This document shows positions 2,686 through 30,686 of a stretch of 34,538 nt of DNA, one piece after another (position 1 is the first letter of the stretch; each line of letters begins with the position of its first letter). The translations under genes and the position numbers were made by a program. The stretch spans positions 1 to 34,538 of the forward strand of contig NW_025214824.1 in the NCBI RefSeq assembly GCF_004010195.1, written 5' to 3'. The notes under the pieces are model-generated. The model ran no database searches. It worked only from the letters and a program-made list of their open reading frames with translations, and was not told the origin of the DNA. The DNA comes from Chiloscyllium plagiosum. Taxonomy: Eukaryota.

Positions 2686-4600
2686 AAGAGATGAGGGTAG
2701 GTGAGGACTTGTGAACAATCATTATTACAGAGGAGGTAGCGTTGGGCAAGCTAATGGAGCTAAGGGTAGACGAATCGCCCGGCCCTGATGTAATGTATCC
2801 CAGGGTACTAAAAAGATAGCGGGAGAAATAACAAGTGCACTTGTGGTAAATTTCCAAAATTTGTTGAACTCTGGAGCAGTCCCAGCAGATTGATAAACAG
2901 CAAATGGGACGCCATTGTTGAAAAAAGGCAGGTGGATAAAAGTTTGGGAATTATAAACCAGTTAACTGAATCTGAGTAGTGGGGATGATGCCTTGACTGT
3001 ATTATCAAGGAAGAAATAGCAAGGCATTTTGATAGAAAACGGCCCATTGCACAGAAGCAGCAAGGATGCATGAAATGCAGATCATGCTTAACAAGTCTTT
3101 TAGAAATCTACGAAGACATTACGAGCAAGATAGACAACGAGGCCGCAGTGAATGTGGTGTATCTAGGTTTCAAAAAGGCTTTGACAGGGTGCCACATAGT
3201 AGGCTGCTGCATAAGATAAATTTGGATGGCGTTACGGCTGAAGTATTAGCATGGATAAAAGATTGGGTGACTAACGGGAAGCAAAGTGTGGGTATAAATG
3301 AATGCTATCCTGGCTGGAAATCAGTGCTGAGTGGTGTGCCTCAGGGATCAGTGTTGGGGTTGCAATTATTCACAATTTATATAGATGATTTGGAGTTGGG
3401 AGCATACGTAGTTTGTCAAAGTTTGCAGATGGCACGAAGATGAGCGGCAGAGAAAAGTGTGCAGAGTACTGTGAAACTTTGCACAGGAAAATAGTTACAT
3501 TGCATGAATGGGGAAAGGTCTGGCGGATGGAATACAATGTTAATAAATATGAAGTAATCTATTTTGTTAGGAGTACTAGTAAAAAGGATTATTACTTGAA
3601 TTGTAAAACGATGCAGCATGCTGCTGTGCAGAGGGACCTGTTTGTCCTTGTGCATGAATCACAGAAGGTTGATCTGCAGGTACATCAAGTAATTAGGAAG
3701 GTAAATGGTATTTTGTTCTTTGTTGCGAAAGGCATTGAATTTAAAAGCAGGGAGGTTATGTTGCAGCTGAACAGGGTGCTGGTGAGGTCATACCTGGAGT
3801 ATTGTGAGCAGTTCTGGCCTCCTTACTTGCAAAGCGATGTACTGCCAGTGGAGGTGATGCAGAGGAGATTCACTCTGGTGATTTTGGAGTTGAGGGGGGT
3901 GTCTTATGAGGAGACACAGAGTAGATCAGCATTATATTCATTGGAATTTAGAAGAATGAGGGGAGGATCTTATAGAAACATAAAAAATATTATTAAGGGA
4001 TGACGTAAGAAAAAAGTAGAGAGGATGGTTCCACTGGCAGGTGAAGCTAGGACAAGATGGAATAACCTCAATATGAGAGGGAGCAGATTTAGGATTGAAT
4101 TGAAAAAACCTTTTCACCCAGAGGCTTGTAATTCTATGGAATTCCCTGCCCAGTGAAGTAGTTAACGCTACTTCAGTAAATGTTTTTCAAGCTGAGATAG
4201 ATATGTTTTGAACAATAAAGTAAATTACGGATATGGTGAGAGCGCGGGTAAGTGGATATGAGTCCACGAGTATATCAGCCTTGATGTTACAGAATGGCTG
4301 AGCAGGTTAGAAGGACCAGATGGCCTACTCCTGCTCCTAGTCCTTCTGTTCTTATGAAAGGGGAGTGGACAGTTCTCCCAGCGCAGACCCTCTGCTTTGA
4401 TTTATTTGGCCTGATTTCTCACAGACTGGCTGTTTACTAAAAGCAGGCAGCCAGTTGTGAAGCTATCAGGCCAAAGAAGAAGGTCTATGCTGATCCCCCC
4501 TCTCTCTGATATCTCTCCTGGAAGAGCCTGGGTTTGATTTTTCCTTTCGAATTTTCCATGGGGTGTTTATGGGGATGTTTCAAGTACTTCGAACAACACC

Positions 4601-14489: not shown

Positions 14490-14900
14490 AAGTTTGGACG
14501 ATACAAATACCCAGTGGGTATCTACCTGATACATGCTGCTGAAGATCTTGTATGTTTCAGTAAGATCACCTCTCTTTCTATGAGTAACCATAATATAAGG
14601 CCTCCATCCCTCGAATACATGAAGTGAACCATCTGTGAACTGCTTCCAATGTAATTATATCCAATCTCAGGGAAGTAGACAAAAAATAAACCTCACACCC
14701 AAGATGAGGCTTTTTTTTTTGTTTTCTCAGTGCTATGAGTTTTTGGAACTCTCTTCCCCGCAGACCGTTGGAGGCAGAGATATCGAATATTTTTGAGGCA
14801 CAGATAGAAGGTTCATAAGTAACAACAGAGTCAATGATTATCAAGGAATGTGCAGGGATGTGCAGCATGGAGAAATGTTGACAGTGGTACAAAATGACAC
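14490..14900. mobile_element. Two short CR1 fragments: minus ~14490-14705 and plus ~14720-14900
   Basis: Minus strand RKRGDLTETYKI and LEAVHRWFT. Plus strand TTGGAACTCTCTTCCCCGCAGA..GGAGGCAG. Confidence 0.65.
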
Positions 14901-15044
14901 TGCTTCAGAACATCCGGCAAAACGAAATGGTAATCTAGAAAACATCTTAAAATGCTAACAGTGATAGAACAGAGTTCCAAGGACCATAGAGCTGCTCTGT
15001 CCTTAGAGAGAGACCACTTGTGCTCGTTTAAACTGAGGGTCACC

Positions 15045-15489
15045 TGTTTTAAAAAATTCTCAAGGTCAGGTTCGTAGGAGAGTAGTCTGACACAGAACAA
15101 ACGACCAAGAGGCGAGTCTGCTAGAATATGAGCATTTTATTCCCCGCAGCGTCGCCACAACCAGGTCTCATACTTACAACGGGTCTGGCTTATCTCACTC
15201 TACATGTTACCGGAACTGGGAGCCGTCAGTTCTCGTAGAGCGGTTGCCAACAACCCACGCTCGGCGGTTAAAACGTAACCCCGGAGCAGACTCACCGAAC
15301 TGGAAACTTTTCCAGCTGATATACTCTTTTCCAGATATAAACATTCATGTGAACAGCAGAGCAAGGCTAAAAAACACATTCCATTCTGGTTACATACAGA
15401 TAAGAAGATTCACACGGGACTAAGCAACACCTCCATTCCGGTTAGATTCACACATGTATTGGGACATAATTTTTAACCGTTTCACCACA
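15045..15489 (-). repeat. 3' LTR (445 bp)
   Basis: Minus strand TGTGGTGAAACGG...AAAACA, with AATAAA near 15135-15141. Confidence 0.95.
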
Positions 15490-16014
15490 TTCCACTGCTT
15501 GGAATTTTACACCACATGGCTGGGCTACAAACGCCCGTACTTGTACCGGGTCCGGGGTTCGAGGGACCTTCCTTTTCTCTTTCCGTTTCTTAGCAGACAG
15601 ATACATAATAGTTCGTCCTGCTAGTTTAGTTAATGCTGTCAATTCAGCTTTTAACTTCATAATTTCCTGCCTCAACATAGAGGCATCTCCCGAACTGAGT
15701 CCCTGCTCATGTTTCAGGAGGGCTAATTCTGCTTCAGCTTTTTGGCGCTTGTCTGACTGTTGTCTACAAGCCGCCGCACAGGCCCACATCCTCCGCTGTA
15801 CCCCAGGCAATGGGTTCTTCGGCAGGACTGGGATCCTCTCAAGGGTGGACAGCAGCGACCCTGGGGTTCCTACGCCCTCGGCCTCCCAGTCCTCCGGTCG
15901 CCCCCCACCATTTCTCAAACAAACTGCCACGCCATGCCACGGCCCATGCCATCCTGGGACGGTCGGGACCTCCACAGTTTGTTCCTCTGGTTTCTTAGCC
16001 TTTTTCCAAAACAT
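15448..16014 (-). CDS. gag: 188-aa ORF resembling the N-terminal region of ERV-L/class III-like Gag; C-terminally truncated, reads through the PPT and stops in the 3' LTR
   Basis: True ATG (ACA-ATG) lies 35 nt after the PBS and there are no internal stops. Motif order GPWHGVAVCL / MWACAAAC / heptad coiled coil / PDPVQVRAFVA parallels ERV-L Gag SPW..GW..coiled coil..VKVRAL (by-eye similarity). Confidence 0.7.
   Translation of the reverse strand: MFWKKAKKPEEQTVEVPTVPGWHGPWHGVAVCLRNGGGRPEDWEAEGVGTPGSLLSTLERIPVLPKNPLPGVQRRMWACAAACRQQSDKRQKAEAELALLKHEQGLSSGDASMLRQEIMKLKAELTALTKLAGRTIMYLSAKKRKEKRKVPRTPDPVQVRAFVAQPCGVKFQAVECGETVKNYVPIHV
15490..15500 (-). promoter_or_regulatory. Polypurine-tract-like sequence
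   Basis: Minus strand AAGCAGTGGAA directly abuts the TG of the 3' LTR. Confidence 0.65.
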
Positions 16015-16049
16015 TGTTCTGTATCAAAATCTTTCCTCAATTGCGATTG

Positions 16050-16067
16050 ATCCTGCCGGCTACGCCA
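16050..16067 (-). promoter_or_regulatory. Primer-binding site, tRNA-Ser
   Basis: Minus strand TGGCGTAGCCGGCAGGAT lies 3 nt after the 5' LTR. It matches the complement of the vertebrate tRNA-Ser(AGA/TGA) 3' end ATCCTGCCGACTACGCCA at 17/18. Confidence 0.9.
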
Positions 16068-16070
16068 AAA

Positions 16071-16549
16071 TGTTTTAAAATAATTCTCAAGGTCAAGGAC
16101 CAGGCTCGCAGGAAAGTCGTCTGACACAGAACAAACAGCCAAGAGGCGAGTCTGCTAGAATATGAGCATTTTTATTCCCCGCAGCGTCGCCACAACCAGG
16201 TCTCATCTTACAACGGGTCTGGCTTATACTCACTCTACATGTTACCGGAACTGGGAGCCGTCAGTTCTCGTAGAGCGGTTGCCAACAACCCACGCTCGGC
16301 GGTTAAACGTAACCCCGGAGCAGACTCACCGAACTGGAGACTTTTCCAGCTGATATACTCTTTTCCAGATATAAACATTCATGTGAACAGCAGAGCAAGG
16401 CTAAAAAACACATTCCACTCTGGTTACATACAGATAAGAAGATTCACACGGGGAGGTGTGTAATAAGATTCACACGGGACTAAGCAACACCTCCATTCCG
16501 GTTAGATTCACACATGTATTGGGACATAATTTTTAACCGTTTCACCACA
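16071..16549 (-). repeat. 5' LTR (479 bp)
   Basis: Direct repeat of 15045-15489 with an extra 26 bp in U3 (16453-16478) and a divergent U5 end. Confidence 0.95.
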
Positions 16550-17102
16550 GTCACCACACCTCCATTAATGGGTTAAGGGTGAGACAGCGTCCCCATCATG
16601 GTAACCTCTGTCAGTGTGGTGAATTGAACCGGCGCTGTTGGCCTCCAACTGCATCACAAACCAGCCATCCAGCCAACTGAGTGGGAGACAGAAACAGTCA
16701 CAGGCAAAGGGCAAGAGAAACTTTCATAACAAAGAAAAAGGTACAATTCAGATAACGGTCAAAATAACGACTGAGAGTAAAAACGTTCTCAGCTAGAAAT
16801 TGTATTTTATGATGAGACAAGTATTTCAAAGCCGTCTTTGACTGAATACGATAAGGTGATACAAATGACATAACGAGAATTACTAATTGTGATTGGATAT
16901 CGATAACCATAAAATGAGTGTAGACATTTGATTGGTCTGTGTAAAATGTGCTTACCATTTTTATAAAGCAAGACACTAGTGTGGGCTGCATATCACCCAA
17001 TGCTGGACAGACCGTTTCACCTGGGTTACTGAATCAATGCTCCGGTGTGACTGTGCTGGTCCCCATGTTGGACAGATAGCCAGTGGCCTGCTGAGACTTA
17101 CG

Positions 17103-17310
17103 CAGTATTCCATCCTGGAGAGATTGCTGGGTTGTACTGAGCCTAGTCTGCACAGTGCTCCATCCTGGATGATTGCTGAGTTGTCCTGAGCCTGGTCTGC
17201 ACAGTACTCCATCCCAGACAAATTGCGCGGTTGTCCTGAGCCGGGTCTGTGCAATGCTCCATCCTGAACAGATTGTTGTGTTGAACTGAGCCTGGTCTGC
17301 ACAGTGCTCC
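17103..17310. repeat. Diverged minisatellite, ~50-bp unit x ~4
   Basis: Consensus CAGTGCTCCATCCTGGANAGATTGCTGNGTTGTCCTGAGCCTGGTCTGCA, with a weaker copy upstream from about 17050. Confidence 0.9.
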
Positions 17311-17499
17311 GTGCCCAGCAGGTATCTCATCTAGGTTTATACGTGTCTGGGCAGGGTCTGTGAAGTGGATTGAGTATCCAGTATAATTCGTTATCGAGCT
17401 ATCACTCCTCCAGCTCGGCGCATTCCGCTGTTAAACCCCGTATTTCTGCAAAATGTTGTCCATTAAGTAATTAACCAATTAAAACATGAATGTCTGTCC

Positions 17500-20422: not shown

Positions 20423-21786
20423 GAGGGAGCTATCTTGAGGATCTCCTGTAGAGATGCCCCATGGCCGAGATGATAGATGCCCACCAATTGTGATCATCTT
20501 CCTTTGTGCCGTGAATGGCACCAAACAGTGGAGAGGTCACAATCTATTTTCATTTAGTGTGATTTTCCTCAGGCTCCTTGATCTCATCCTCAGTCAAATA
20601 CTGCCTTGAGTTCAGGGTCAGTCTCTCTTACCTGAACCCCTGTGTCCATCTTTTGTTCATATCAATAGGTCATGATGTAGAAGAAGAAAATGTTTTCTTC
20701 AAACAGAGGGTAGTGAATGTCAGGAATTCTCTTACATAGTGTTAGGGGAGCTAGATCACTGAAAGTGACCAGTGATGTTCTGCAGGGAGCGGTTCTGGGA
20801 CCCCTACTCTTTTTTATTTCTGTGAATGACTTGGATGGGGGTGTGGAATAGTGGGTTACCAGCTTGAGAAGCTGAATGACCTCTTCCTGTTCCTTTTTAA
20901 TGACACCGGGAGTGAAATTTTCTCTTACTGATCCTGTGTAAGTGTGTATGGGAGTGAGCAGATCCCTTATCTTCCTGTTTTATAGGCAGGAGGGACTGGA
21001 TGTGCTATCCGCCTTTTTGCTCAGTAGTTTTGGTGGGCTGAATGGCTTCCTCATATTCTTGTGAAACCAGAGTGAAGTGCTCAATGTCCTCCTCGTTTTA
21101 CTGTAGAAATGTACAGTGCTGTAACATGAATGTTACCCAGATTTTAACAGCACAATCTTGAATGTAGTCCAGGTCTAGTTGTACATGGACACAGACTGCT
21201 TCAAGAGCTGAAGAGGGACAACTTGTTTTAAACATTATGTAAACTTCAGTGAATATCCCCACTTCTGCTAAGTTTTGACTCAATGGGCTGAAAGGCCTCC
21301 TTCCAAACTGCAGGATTCCCCGCAGACAAACAGAAGATGCCTGGGCTGAGGGAGCTATCTTGAGGATCTCCTGTAGAGATGCCCCATGGCCGAGATGATA
21401 GATGCCGACCAATGGTAATCATCTTCCCTTGTGCCGTGAATGGCTCCAAACAGTGGCGAGGTCACAATCGATTCTCATTAAGTGTGATTTTCCTCAGGCT
21501 CCTTGATCTCATCCTCAGTCAAATACTGCCTTGAGTTCAGGATCAGTCTCTCTTACCTGAGCCCCTGTGTCCATCTTTTGTTCATATCAATAGGTCATGA
21601 TGTAGAAGCAGAAAATGTTTTCTTCAAACAAAGGGTAGTGAATGTCAGGAATTCTCTTACACAGAGTTAGGGGAGCTAGATCACTGAAAGTGACCAGTGA
21701 TGTTCTGCAGGGAGCGGCTCTGGAAACCCTACTCTTTTTTATTTCTATAAATGACTTGGATGGGGGTGTGGAATAGTGGGTTACCA
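20423..21786 (+). repeat. Dispersed 439-bp direct duplication (20423-20861 and 21348-21786) of a composite LINE segment
   Basis: Colinear at a constant 925-bp offset from GAGGGAGCTATCTTGAGG to GTGGGTTACCA. Confidence 0.95.
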
Positions 21787-22688
21787 CGTTTGCCAATGAC
21801 ACAAAGGTTGTTGGAGTGGTACAGAATGTGGAGGGATTTTGTAGGTTGCAACGGGACATTGACAGGATGCAGAACTGGGCTGAGAAGTGGCAGATGGAGT
21901 TCAAACTGGAAAAGTGTGAAGTGAATCCCTTTGCAAGCTCGAATGTGAATGCAGAATACATGGTTAAAGACAGGATTCTTGGCAGTGTGGAGGAACAGAG
22001 CGACCTCGAGGTCCGTGTCCACAGATCCCTCAAATATGCTCCCCAAGTTGATGATGTGGTTAAGAAGGCATATGGTGTGTTGGCTTTCATTAGCAGGTGG
22101 ATTGAGATTAAGAGCCGTGAGGTTAGGCTGAAGCACTATAGAGCCATGGATAGACCACATTTGGAATATTGTGTTCAGTTCTGGTCACCCCATTATAGGA
22201 AGGATGTGGAAGCTTTAGAGCGGAAATTTACCAAGATGCTGCCTGGACTGGAGGGCAAGTTTCATGAAGGAAGCTTGAGGGAGCAAGGGATTTCTCATTG
22301 GAAAGAAGAAAGATGACAGGTGACTTGATAGAGGTGTGCAAGATGATGAGAGACATAGACAGAGTGAATAACTAACGACTGTTTCCTAGGGCAGAAATAT
22401 CTATCACAAGGGGTCATAATTTTAAGGTAATTGGAGGAAGGTTTAAGGGAGATAACCGAGGTAGGTTGTTTAGACAGAGAGTGGTGGGTGTGTGGAATGT
22501 ACTGCCAACAGTGGAAGTATAGTCAATTACGTGAGGGAAACTGAAGAGATTCTTGGATAGGCATATGGAAGAATGTGAACGGAAGCATGTAGGATAGTCT
22601 GATCATAGAGTAGGATAAACGGGTGGTACAGCATCGAGATTCGAATGTCCTGTACTGTGCTCTACTGTTCTTTGTTCTGTGTTCTATG
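21688..22688 (+). mobile_element. 5'-truncated CR1 (RT C-terminal half and 3' UTR), relatively young
   Basis: TFANDTK, LQRDIDRMQNWAEKWQMEF and RPHLEYCVQFWSPHYRKDVEALER motifs. Tail TGTTCTTTGTTCTGTGTTCTATG. Confidence 0.93.
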
Positions 22689-27924: not shown

Positions 27925-28100
27925 CCCATTGGCCCTGCAAGTCTACCCAATCTCTGTACATATTTTAATTATTCTAATTCCCGTTTACTATTAGGGGGCC
28001 TATAGTACAACCCATTGGTCCTGCAAGTCTCCCCAATCTCTGTACATATTTTAATTATTCTAATTCCCGTTTACTATTAGGGGGCCTATAGTACAACCCA
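27925..28100. repeat. 86-bp tandem duplication inside the CR1 endonuclease region
   Basis: 27925-28010 is repeated at 28011-28096 with two substitutions and CCCA microhomology at the junctions. Confidence 0.93.
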
Positions 28101-28423
28101 AATAATATCATCATTCCCTTTTTATTTCTTAGCTTCCCCCACAAATCCTCACTGGATGATCCATTAGTTATTTTATCTTTGATTACTGCTGTGGTACTCG
28201 CCTTAATCAAAAATGAAATCCCCACACCTCCTTCCACCAACTCTGTCTCGCATAATGCACCTTTACCTCGGTACATTAAGCTGCCAGTCCTGTCCCTCCC
28301 TTCGCCATGTTTTGTAATGTCTATAATATCCCAGTCCCACGTACCTCTCCACACACTGAGTTCATCGGCCTTACCTGACAGCCATCTTACATTGAGATAG
28401 ATGCAATTTAATGCAACAGGCAT

Positions 28424-28553
28424 ATTCCTGATGAAGGGCTTTTGCCCGAAACGTCGATTTTGCTGCTCGTCGGATGCTGCCTGAATTGCTGTGCTCTTCC
28501 AGCACCACTGATCCAGAATCTGGTTTCCAGCATCTGCAGTCATTGTTTTACCT
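28424..28553 (+). mobile_element. Solo Penelope pseudo-LTR with intact minimal hammerhead (28424-28459)
   Basis: ATTC-CTGATGA-A-GGGC-TTTT-GCCC-GAAAC-GTC-GATT, then GGATGCTGCCTGA..CCAGCATCTGCAGTC. Inserted at the CR1 ORF1/ORF2 boundary. Confidence 0.88.
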
Positions 28554-30141
28554 CATTCCTTGCTCCCTGTCGTGTTCCTGCCTAAGCTATCCCTGCACTT
28601 TATTGTTTGTGATTACGGTATCTCCTTCCAGCCTCGCACTTGCAACCCTGCTGTTGAGGATCCCATGCCGTCCCCCACGCCAGCCAATCTAGTTGAAACC
28701 CTCCCTTGTAGCATTAACAAACCTGCTAGCCAGGATATTAGTCCCCTTCCAATTCAGGTACAACCCGTCCTTCCTGAACAGGTCACCTCTGCCCCACCAA
28801 AGATCCGAGTGATCTAAAACTCTGAATCCCTACCTCCTGTACCAATTATTTAGCCACGCATTCCTCTGCCGTGTCCGCCTGTTCTTACCCTCACTAGCAC
28901 AAAACACTGGAAGTCAACCGGACATTACCACTGTCGTGGTCCTGTCTTTTACCCTTTTTCCTCGCTCTCTATAATCACTCTGCATGACCTCATCATTATT
29001 TCTACCTGTGTCATTTGTACCCATGTGCACAATGACTTCTGGCTGCTCCCCCACCCCGGTGAGAACGTTCTGCAGCCGCTCTGAGACATCCTGGACCCGG
29101 GAACGTAGGAATCTATACATCATCTTGGATTCCCATTTGCATCCACAGAATCTCTTGTCTGATCCCCTCACATATCGAGTCTGAATCATTACTTCTGAAG
29201 TTATCCGTCTCGCATAACCTTCTGACAATGGGATTTCTTCCTGAAACAGTTGGATTTGGCTGAATTGCTTTGCTTCAGGCAGTGGGGAGATTCCAATGAA
29301 TCATCATCAGGAAGCCTCCATGAGGGAAAAGACGACTAGGCTTTTTTTAGTCCCACACAGTGCTGTGTTGAGCGGCAGGGAAACAGAAAAGGAGCAACAG
29401 GCTGTTCCTTCACAGACAGGCTACATTTTCTATCTGTAAGTTAAATCAGTAAAGTTATCAGGTCCGAAACGGGACCATGTGAGCTCTCCTTGAATATTGT
29501 CTGAACTATATGACTCCATCACATTCTCGTCTCCAGGTCAGTGCATTATTGCTGTTGTCATACACCGAATCAATTCATTAACAATAAATGGCTCTACTTG
29601 TTTTGAAGATGTGTTAATATGCACCTGCATAATGTAAACATAAGCGTTTGATGACTTCACAATATCTGTGTTAAGATGAATAAGTTTTATTGTTAAACAA
29701 ATACAGAAATTGCTGGAAAAGCTCNNNNNNNNNNNNNNNNNNNNNNNNNAATCTTTGAAAAAATTCGAAAGCAATTTTGTTTTTATCAGTTAAGGCAATT
29801 ATAACGACACATAATACATCAGATGTGATCTCAGCAATGGCCTGGTCTGATGCAAAAATCATCACTAAGATCAAACACAACACCCCTTACACGAAACAGA
29901 ATCATTCCATTTACTTCCAAATCACCAGCTGCATCTTCACAGTAAGTTGATGTGGTTCATGTACTCAGACACACAGATCCCTCTGTACCACTCAGTTCTG
30001 CATTCTCCTTGCATTTAAATAATTTTCTGCTGTTTTGTCTTTTCCCCAAAACAGAAAATTCCCATCACAGAAATGTTGTACTTTTTTTTCTGCTGAAGAT
30101 TTGCTCAAAACTGTCCTCTGTCTGTATGTCATTGCTTGATT

Positions 30142-30686
30142 CTCTGCCCCTCCCCTGTCTGCATCCCATTGCAGACACTCTGCCCTCCCCCTGTCTGTAT
30201 CCAATTGCAGACGCTCAGCCCTCCCCCTGTCTGTATCCTATTGCAGAAGCTTTGCCCCTCCCCTGTTAGTATCCCATTGCATACGCTCTGTCCTCCCCTG
30301 TCTGTATCATATTGTAGACGGTCTGCCCTCCCCGTCTGTATTCCACTGTAGACGCTATGCCTTCCCTGTCTGATGCCATTGCAGACGCTCAGCCCTCCCC
30401 CTGTCTGTATCCCATTGCAGACGCTCTGCCCTCCCCCTGTCTGTATCATGTTGTAGGCTGTCTGCCCTCCCCCTATCTGTATCCCATTGCAGACGGTCTG
30501 CCCTCCCCCTGTGTGTATTCCACTGTAGACGCTATGCCTTCCCCGTATATATCCCATTGCAGATGCTCTGCCCTCCCCCTGTCTGTATTCCATTGCAGAT
30601 GCTCTTCCCTCCCCCGTCTGTATCCCATTGCAGATGCTCTTCTCTCCCCCTGTCTGTATCCCATTGCAGACGCTCTGCCCTCCCCC
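30142..30686. repeat. Minisatellite, ~36-bp unit x ~15, running into an N gap
   Basis: Consensus CTGCCCTCCCCCTGTCTGTATCCCATTGCAGACGCT. Confidence 0.97.

Follow-up and report, generated by a model that had tools for sequence, protein, structure and literature searches.

A single, heavily deleted provirus in the shark Chiloscyllium plagiosum, very probably a dead-end copy of a young ERV-L/XtERV-S-like retrovirus

Among class III endogenous retroviruses (ERVs), ERV-L uses a Leu primer, and the MaLRs keep a gag-derived open reading frame (ORF) in very many copies. The formation of LTRs from two templates is thought to be rare in retroviruses. For XtERV-S of Xenopus tropicalis, the available text of PMC8278194 describes 19 deleted copies (Xt-S4 to Xt-S22) that keep the primer binding site (PBS), the leader, the 5' part of gag and the polypurine tract (PPT), and that are flanked by 5-bp target-site duplications (TSDs). 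Deletions from gag to the 3' end are common among defective HIV-1 proviruses according to the accessible part of PMC12657518, and an intermolecular second strand transfer has been inferred for HIV-1 (available text of PMC5651808). Lokiretroviruses have an F-like env and a reverse transcriptase (RT) that is sister to those of all other retroviruses (PMC7947760); the available text of that paper holds no PBS or TSD passage for comparison. We describe here a short provirus-like element of Chiloscyllium plagiosum, whose deletion design (PBS, 5' gag and PPT) is one already known from XtERV-S. The element very probably derives from a young class III retrovirus of sharks, similar to ERV-L and XtERV-S, and is a lone dead-end provirus with an internal deletion.

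The window analysed is a stretch of 34,538 nucleotides (positions 1 to 34,538 of contig NW_025214824.1, assembly GCF_004010195.1), and the element occupies 15045-16549 on its minus strand. Both LTRs have TG..CA ends; they measure 479 bp (5') and 445 bp (3') and enclose an interior of only 581 bp. Read in the direction of the element, the 5' LTR (16071..16549) has a U3 and R of the short-copy type and a U5 of haplotype A, with an AATAAA at 16176-16171 and an R/U5 border placed near LTR position 392-398 by poly(A)-tailed RNA reads of the family. A 3-nt TTT spacer precedes the PBS (16050..16067), 17 of whose 18 bases are complementary to tRNA-Ser(AGA). The start of gag (15520..16014) comprises 165 of the 603 codons of the parent ERV, the gag-side interior being 98-99% identical to that of long copies. 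It ends at the deletion junction, which consists of three bases, CCA, without a match in the parent gag (15517..15519), and is followed by a 27-nt short unit (15490..15516) made up of a 14-nt copy of the LTR start and a PPT-like 13-mer. The 3' LTR (15045..15489) is wholly of the short-copy type and has a U5 of haplotype B. LTRs, PBS and PPT are present, pol is absent, and no N gap lies inside the element. A preliminary description of the locus had reported the TG..CA LTRs, the 581-bp interior, the 17/18 tRNA-Ser PBS and a GTCACC on both sides, all of which are borne out, as is the CpG richness of the LTRs (observed/expected 0.83-0.89, versus 0.37 in the rest of the window). The PPT-like tract is likewise present, but it is weak (9 purines in 13 bases), and the 14-nt LTR-start copy that precedes it offers an alternative start at 15516, leaving the 3' LTR start ambiguous (15489 or 15516). 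Elsewhere in the window there are two minisatellites, at 17103-17318 (50-bp period, 4 copies) and 30118-30686 (36-bp period, 16 copies), and decayed LINE-like RT and endonuclease fragments at 3036-4003, 21777-22316 and 28055-29300, which we take to be of CR1 type.

The GTCACC copies lie at 16550..16555 on the element's 5' side and at 15039..15044 on its 3' side. The host flank (14700..15044) belongs to a multi-copy repeat with at least 41 matches, and its other copies provide the empty site. Since GTCACC is present once in all five of the empty paralogous sites examined, 6 bp were duplicated at insertion. In a check of sequencing reads, one contig from one of four runs joins 15038 to 16550 with six bases shared, and this contig represents either an allele without the insertion or a closely related paralogous site. 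TSDs were surveyed at 38 loci, four of which had no junction motif and were left out. The remaining 34 short loci comprised 16 with exact 5-bp TSDs, one with a mismatched TSD, 16 without a call, and the window copy, which alone has 6 bp; exact 5-bp TSDs were also found in three long copies and 6 bp in none. With 5 bp in 19 other copies (16 short, 3 long), the 6-bp duplication is either an integration outlier or a 5-bp duplication with one base added, and it says nothing about lineage.

The copy in the window exits gag at interior base 551 and passes through CCA into the 27-nt short unit, which also begins the 5' LTR of three other copies (L011, L021 and L028). A 31-base pattern spanning this junction, searched with up to two mismatches, has a single match in the 3.56 Gb assembly, namely the window itself. 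In eight of ten long stretches gag continues past interior base 551, while one of the others hits an N gap and the second ends earlier. Clean microhomology is absent at the junction, which, together with the CCA bases, counts against the recombination reading given below. Because the junction of gag to PPT is unique, the window copy does not represent an amplified MaLR- or TRIM-like family, as the preliminary description had proposed. This young shark ERV is represented at the locus by one isolated copy that has lost most of its length and keeps its cis signals, yet has no progeny in the assembly.

The interior, used as a query of the genome, gave 54 matches (87 candidates, 40 scored), and ten longer stretches were analysed. 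The parent is found in the same genome at 98-99% identity and has the order gag-TAG-pol(PR-RT-RH-IN-dUTPase)-env. In long copies, a gag of 603 codons is separated by an in-frame TAG from a pol of about 1,160 codons, and an env is present as well; gag, pol and env are all unbroken in none of the ten. Pfam places the integrase domain rve at 816-911 and a dUTPase downstream of it at 986-1113. Compared with Table 2 of PMC8278194, the parent has a Gag without a Cys-His box, an in-frame stop between gag and pol, YIDD, and HX4HX28CX2C. Its RT relatives, at 61-76% identity, are proteins of teleosts, amphibians, lungfish and an owl. The two owl proteins (P0008 and P0026, 62-67%) stand among fish and amphibian relatives, with P0008 beside a lungfish protein, and it is possible that they reflect a host jump.

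Phylogeny was inferred using FastTree from 41 RT regions (40 of 67 matches plus the query; 291 columns), a set without HERV-S, foamy, SnRV or loki references. The shark clade, whose own support is weak (0.38), joins a clade of mouse ERV-L-type and XtERV-S-type proteins with a support of 0.97, these labels having been given by motif spacing equal to the columns of Table 2 in PMC8278194. The outer branches are ENS-3, a gamma-like protein and gypsy elements. Together, the RT clade, the dUTPase after integrase and the gag-pol motifs place the parent among the class III ERVs, in the ERV-L/XtERV-S group. The preliminary description had held that the lineage could not be fixed without RT and had suggested a search for full-length relatives and an RT phylogeny; both were carried out, and they yielded RT-bearing gag-pol-env parents in the same genome and a class III placement (support 0.97 with ERV-L/XtERV-S types). 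Its view of the window copy as young, non-autonomous and derived from a cartilaginous-fish class III ERV was upheld. The lokiretrovirus-like ancestry that it also entertained is disfavoured by the position of the dUTPase after integrase and by the RT tree, which contains no loki sequence.

The parent env has a furin site, and CX6CC is absent from both of the env copies compared. Homologues (n = 25) were found in sharks (59-94% identity), teleosts (43-55%), and marsupials and Xenopus (about 30%). The last group, noted for the TM part of the L037 env, consists of P0141-P0144, proteins of 603-669 aa from Xenopus and three marsupials, and the marsupial homologue is possibly a captured envelope gene. 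A low-confidence model of the TM part (pLDDT 51.5) had foamy Env in the post-fusion state as its best fold match (E 7e-4, TM-score about 0.12) and pneumovirus F as its second; the available text of PMC11468914 gives foamy Env and F a common fold. Clusters of F0, baculovirus F and gypsy env came up in a feature search, at scores below the recognition threshold. A fold search of BFVD gave no match at E<=0.001, no sequence match was obtained, a profile search of PDB and Pfam gave none, and PF00523 was found in 0 of 22 homologues. The parent env may be of the foamy/F type, and we offer this as a lead only.

Separate from the window copy, the genome holds a family of minis, in which interior bases 1-293 (gag) are followed by a GAACT-rich filler and the PPT region. 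The family (examined at loci L011-L030 and L060-L076) has 35 junction matches in the genome, with 16 exact 5-bp TSDs at different flanks, and is truly amplified and non-autonomous, unlike the window copy. Two further loci, L037 and L038, are independent insertions with a common large deletion that joins gag to RNase H and with a third type of U5; they make up another subfamily, either semi-autonomous or non-autonomous. The family also has tandem arrays in which a unit of 63-80 nt, made of the PPT and the start of U3, is repeated up to about ten times, and 5' LTRs start at different PPT/U3 units, so that LTR length varies among copies. Such an array precedes the 3' LTR of L037, and others are seen in L012, L014, L021, L026 and L032. 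Plus-strand priming would be possible at any of these PPT units. As for minus-strand priming, the PBS of the window copy agrees with the tRNA-Ser(AGA) genes of the same genome at 17 of 18 positions, and the PBS variants of L001-L030 and L060-L074 match tRNA-Ser(AGA), tRNA-Ser(TGA) and hybrids of both, as expected where reverse transcriptase copies the primer. The search for tRNA-Ser 3' ends had 34 matches, many of them on small contigs with one common variant, and five of six scanned were tRNA-Ser.

The LTRs of the window copy had been described as near-identical, which holds in part only, in that they are not a clean pair: between them there are 8 substitutions and 7 gap events, two of which span 26 nt and 7 nt, and their U5 regions belong to two haplotypes of the family. 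Six of the eight substitutions lie in U5, where five of the six and the 7-nt gap make up the shared A/B haplotype block. Only 2 substitutions (443 aligned sites) and 3 single-base indels are private to the window LTRs, the remainder being shared family variants. As most LTR differences are shared variants, dating by raw LTR divergence was rejected. Both LTRs have short-copy U3/R alleles except for the 26-nt unit and one base, and the switch of haplotype, to U5-A in the 5' LTR and U5-B in the 3' LTR, falls between LTR positions 386 and 412, an interval that brackets the poly(A) site derived from RNA reads. The 3' LTR is separated from the 3' LTR of the mini L013 by 1 substitution and 3 gap events, against 8 substitutions from its own partner.

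We lean towards the view that the window copy is a dead-end recombinant formed in reverse transcription. Its parentage, the junction and its uniqueness, the LTR mosaic and the TSD are observed, whereas each step of the history set out below is inferred. Recombination between two RNAs packaged together is the simplest account that needs one event only. Two different RNAs of the family, one of the short type and one of the long type, would have been co-packaged. A minus strand primed by tRNA-Ser would first extend through U5-B, R, U3 and the tandem PPTs on the short-type RNA, and an illegitimate template switch would then carry it into gag codon 165 of the long-type RNA, a single switch that would remove capsid, pol and env together. 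The U5-A of the 5' end would arrive with the PBS and gag of this second RNA, either because synthesis ran on into the 5' end of that RNA, left unprimed, or through a second strand transfer between molecules. Integration, by a helper integrase, would have involved an atypical 6-bp stagger. The open state of the frame would reflect the youth of the copy and a junction that by chance reads through 23 codons.

The rival that survives best is an assembly chimera, which we regard as unlikely but serious: the real locus would be a B-type mini or a solo LTR, into which U5-A, the PBS and gag up to interior base 551 were brought from another copy by the assembler. The flank-anchored ends are of the short-copy type and enclose an inner part of long-copy type, as a chimera would have it. 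The assembly is in 101,977 contigs, the window has five N gaps, and the LTRs, with 1,641 matches in the assembly to a U5 motif, could confuse an assembler. In a whole-LTR comparison of 10 pairs, the nearest LTR was the own partner in none, which fits path-swapping by the assembler. So does the haplotype switch in the 5' LTRs of L013 and L015, which lies inside U3 and not at R/U5. L019 (C17) and L020 (C36) have an identical 40-nt left flank and LTR start on two contigs, reflecting segmental duplication or misassembly. Among the read records listed, in which collinear junctions are not recorded as joints, none supports the junction, and the only listed read contig that reaches 15520 departs from the window sequence there. 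Against a chimera, the two halves of the junction have no overlap and are separated by three bases that occur in neither half, which a path through an assembly graph could not invent, and there is no N within the element. U5 typing of the 16 short copies with both U5s further found 11 concordant, so that swapping is not general at U5. Five copies were discordant, and discordant pairs were present in 3 of the 11 short copies with exact TSDs. The copies with discordant 5' and 3' haplotypes (L013, L015, L020, L023 and the window copy) may reflect biology or an assembly artefact.

Improbable, in our judgement, is an origin after insertion, in which non-homologous deletion removed the interior of a longer provirus and another copy of the family converted part of one LTR. 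The unique junction and the intact TSDs agree with such a history, and the family offers abundant donors for conversion. It needs two independent events, however, in a copy as young as this one (2 private substitutions), and the deletion would have to stop exactly at the 27-nt unit that is elsewhere the 5'-LTR start of short copies. The U3 is moreover of the short-copy type in both LTRs. Recombination at the level of co-packaged RNAs remains our preferred reading for the window copy.

The minus-strand frame of 188 codons (16014-15448) bears on a different proposal, namely a non-autonomous family selected for an intact Gag N-terminus, whether as a MaLR/TRIM-like parasite or for a product like a restriction factor. 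The frame had been reported as an intact ORF; all 188 codons are open, but only 165 are gag, the other 23 (with the stop, 15448..15519) being read-through across the junction, 13 of them within the 3' LTR. A Pfam search with the window ORF gave a sub-threshold chance match only, searches of Pfam and PDB sequences with the full Gag gave no usable match, and a feature search of an atlas with the Gag N-terminus matched clusters of generic coiled coils, at values under the recognition threshold. The longer relatives of the protein are only two shark gene models, at 73-75% identity. Compared with the gag of four long copies, 2 of 5, 4 of 7, 4 of 10 and 4 of 11 codon differences in the window gag are synonymous, and non-synonymous differences exceed synonymous ones in three of the four comparisons. 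In all eight of the minis translated, the Gag frame is broken after 53-88 codons, and a ninth locus has no start. Since the minis that amplified have broken frames, the open frame of the window copy would appear to be inherited, without sign of selection.

Transcription was assessed in a poly(A) single-cell run with the same species label, of which about 2% was read. The reads that fit the stretch numbered 459 and came mostly from U3/R, and RNA reads of the family carry tails after AATAAA. Over the copy-specific gag at 15537-15737 the depth was at most 1, compared with more than 200 in U3/R, in this portion of about 2% of the library. The LTR activity so documented is that of the family and not of the window copy in particular. 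Complete cis signals, an open frame, an LTR that is transcribed and polyadenylated in the family and a related mini family that did amplify all speak for a selected Gag N-terminus; set against its single copy, the broken frames of the amplified minis, the absence of a synonymous excess and the RNA depth over gag, the proposal is very improbable, and retention of the frame by selection was not substantiated. A nested insertion followed by LTR-LTR recombination was rejected, as it should have left a U5 of the host type in the 3' LTR and duplicated target bases where gag ends, neither of which is seen.

The locus itself is of little weight, as such single deleted proviruses are known for XtERV-S and are common in defective HIV-1. 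Of more interest is the family, which carries the ERV-L/XtERV-S group into sharks and comprises young copies, at least 35 minis and some 1,600 LTRs. No description of a shark ERV-L-like family was found in the literature searched, which covers few of the subscription papers, and the available texts of PMC6001957, PMC4977317, PMC10536682, 10.1101/2023.10.26.564294, 10.1101/2021.11.23.469661 and 10.64898/2026.05.06.723177 do not describe this one. Judged from papers and not from Repbase or Dfam, the shark class III ERV is apparently, and with weak confidence, undescribed. It is tentatively hypothesized that a recently active, undescribed class III retrovirus of sharks combined an ERV-L-type gag-pol(dUTPase) with a foamy/paramyxo-F-type env shared with teleost ERVs and a marsupial gene, and left progeny with tandem-PPT priming, variable left ends of LTRs and, often, LTR pairs of two haplotypes. 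If true, the germ line would hold a record of two-template (intermolecular) LTR formation as a routine event. If the discordant LTR pairs are real, dating by LTR divergence fails here, and two-template LTR synthesis can be counted in a genome. Should the env belong to the foamy/F type, it may represent the envelope of class III before its loss (ERV-L) or replacement (XtERV-S).

The closest described system is XtERV-S, which, by the available text of PMC8278194, resembles the shark family in its tRNA-Ser(AGA/TGA) PBS, TGT..ACA ends and 5-bp family TSD, and resembles the parent in its in-frame gag-pol stop, dUTPase after integrase, YIDD and lack of a Cys-His box. The shark RT is 49% identical to a Xenopus protein with XtERV-S motif spacing (P0030), which is not its sister in the tree. 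The env of XtERV-S is described there as gamma-type with CX6CC, whereas the shark env lacks CX6CC, and the tandem PPT/U3-start arrays of the shark family have no mention for XtERV-S in that text. ERV-L of the MuERV-L type, as far as the same text describes it, resembles the shark parent in the order of pol with its terminal dUTPase and in its 5-bp TSD, and the shark RT shares 52% identity with P0019, a mouse cluster of 753 members whose motif spacing is that of ERV-L; the shark parent differs from ERV-L in having a Ser primer and an env. The env of lokiretroviruses is F-like (PMC7947760, available text), a type at which weak fold and feature matches hint for the shark parent, but the shark RT, unlike that of lokiretroviruses, nests among class III proteins in our tree, which is without a loki sequence. 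Unlike the multi-copy MaLRs, the window junction is present in one copy. BHIKHARI of zebrafish is, like the window copy, a non-autonomous gag-bearing LTR element, and according to the available text of 10.1101/2024.03.25.586437 it retains the whole Gag including capsid, whereas the window copy retains the Gag N-terminus only.
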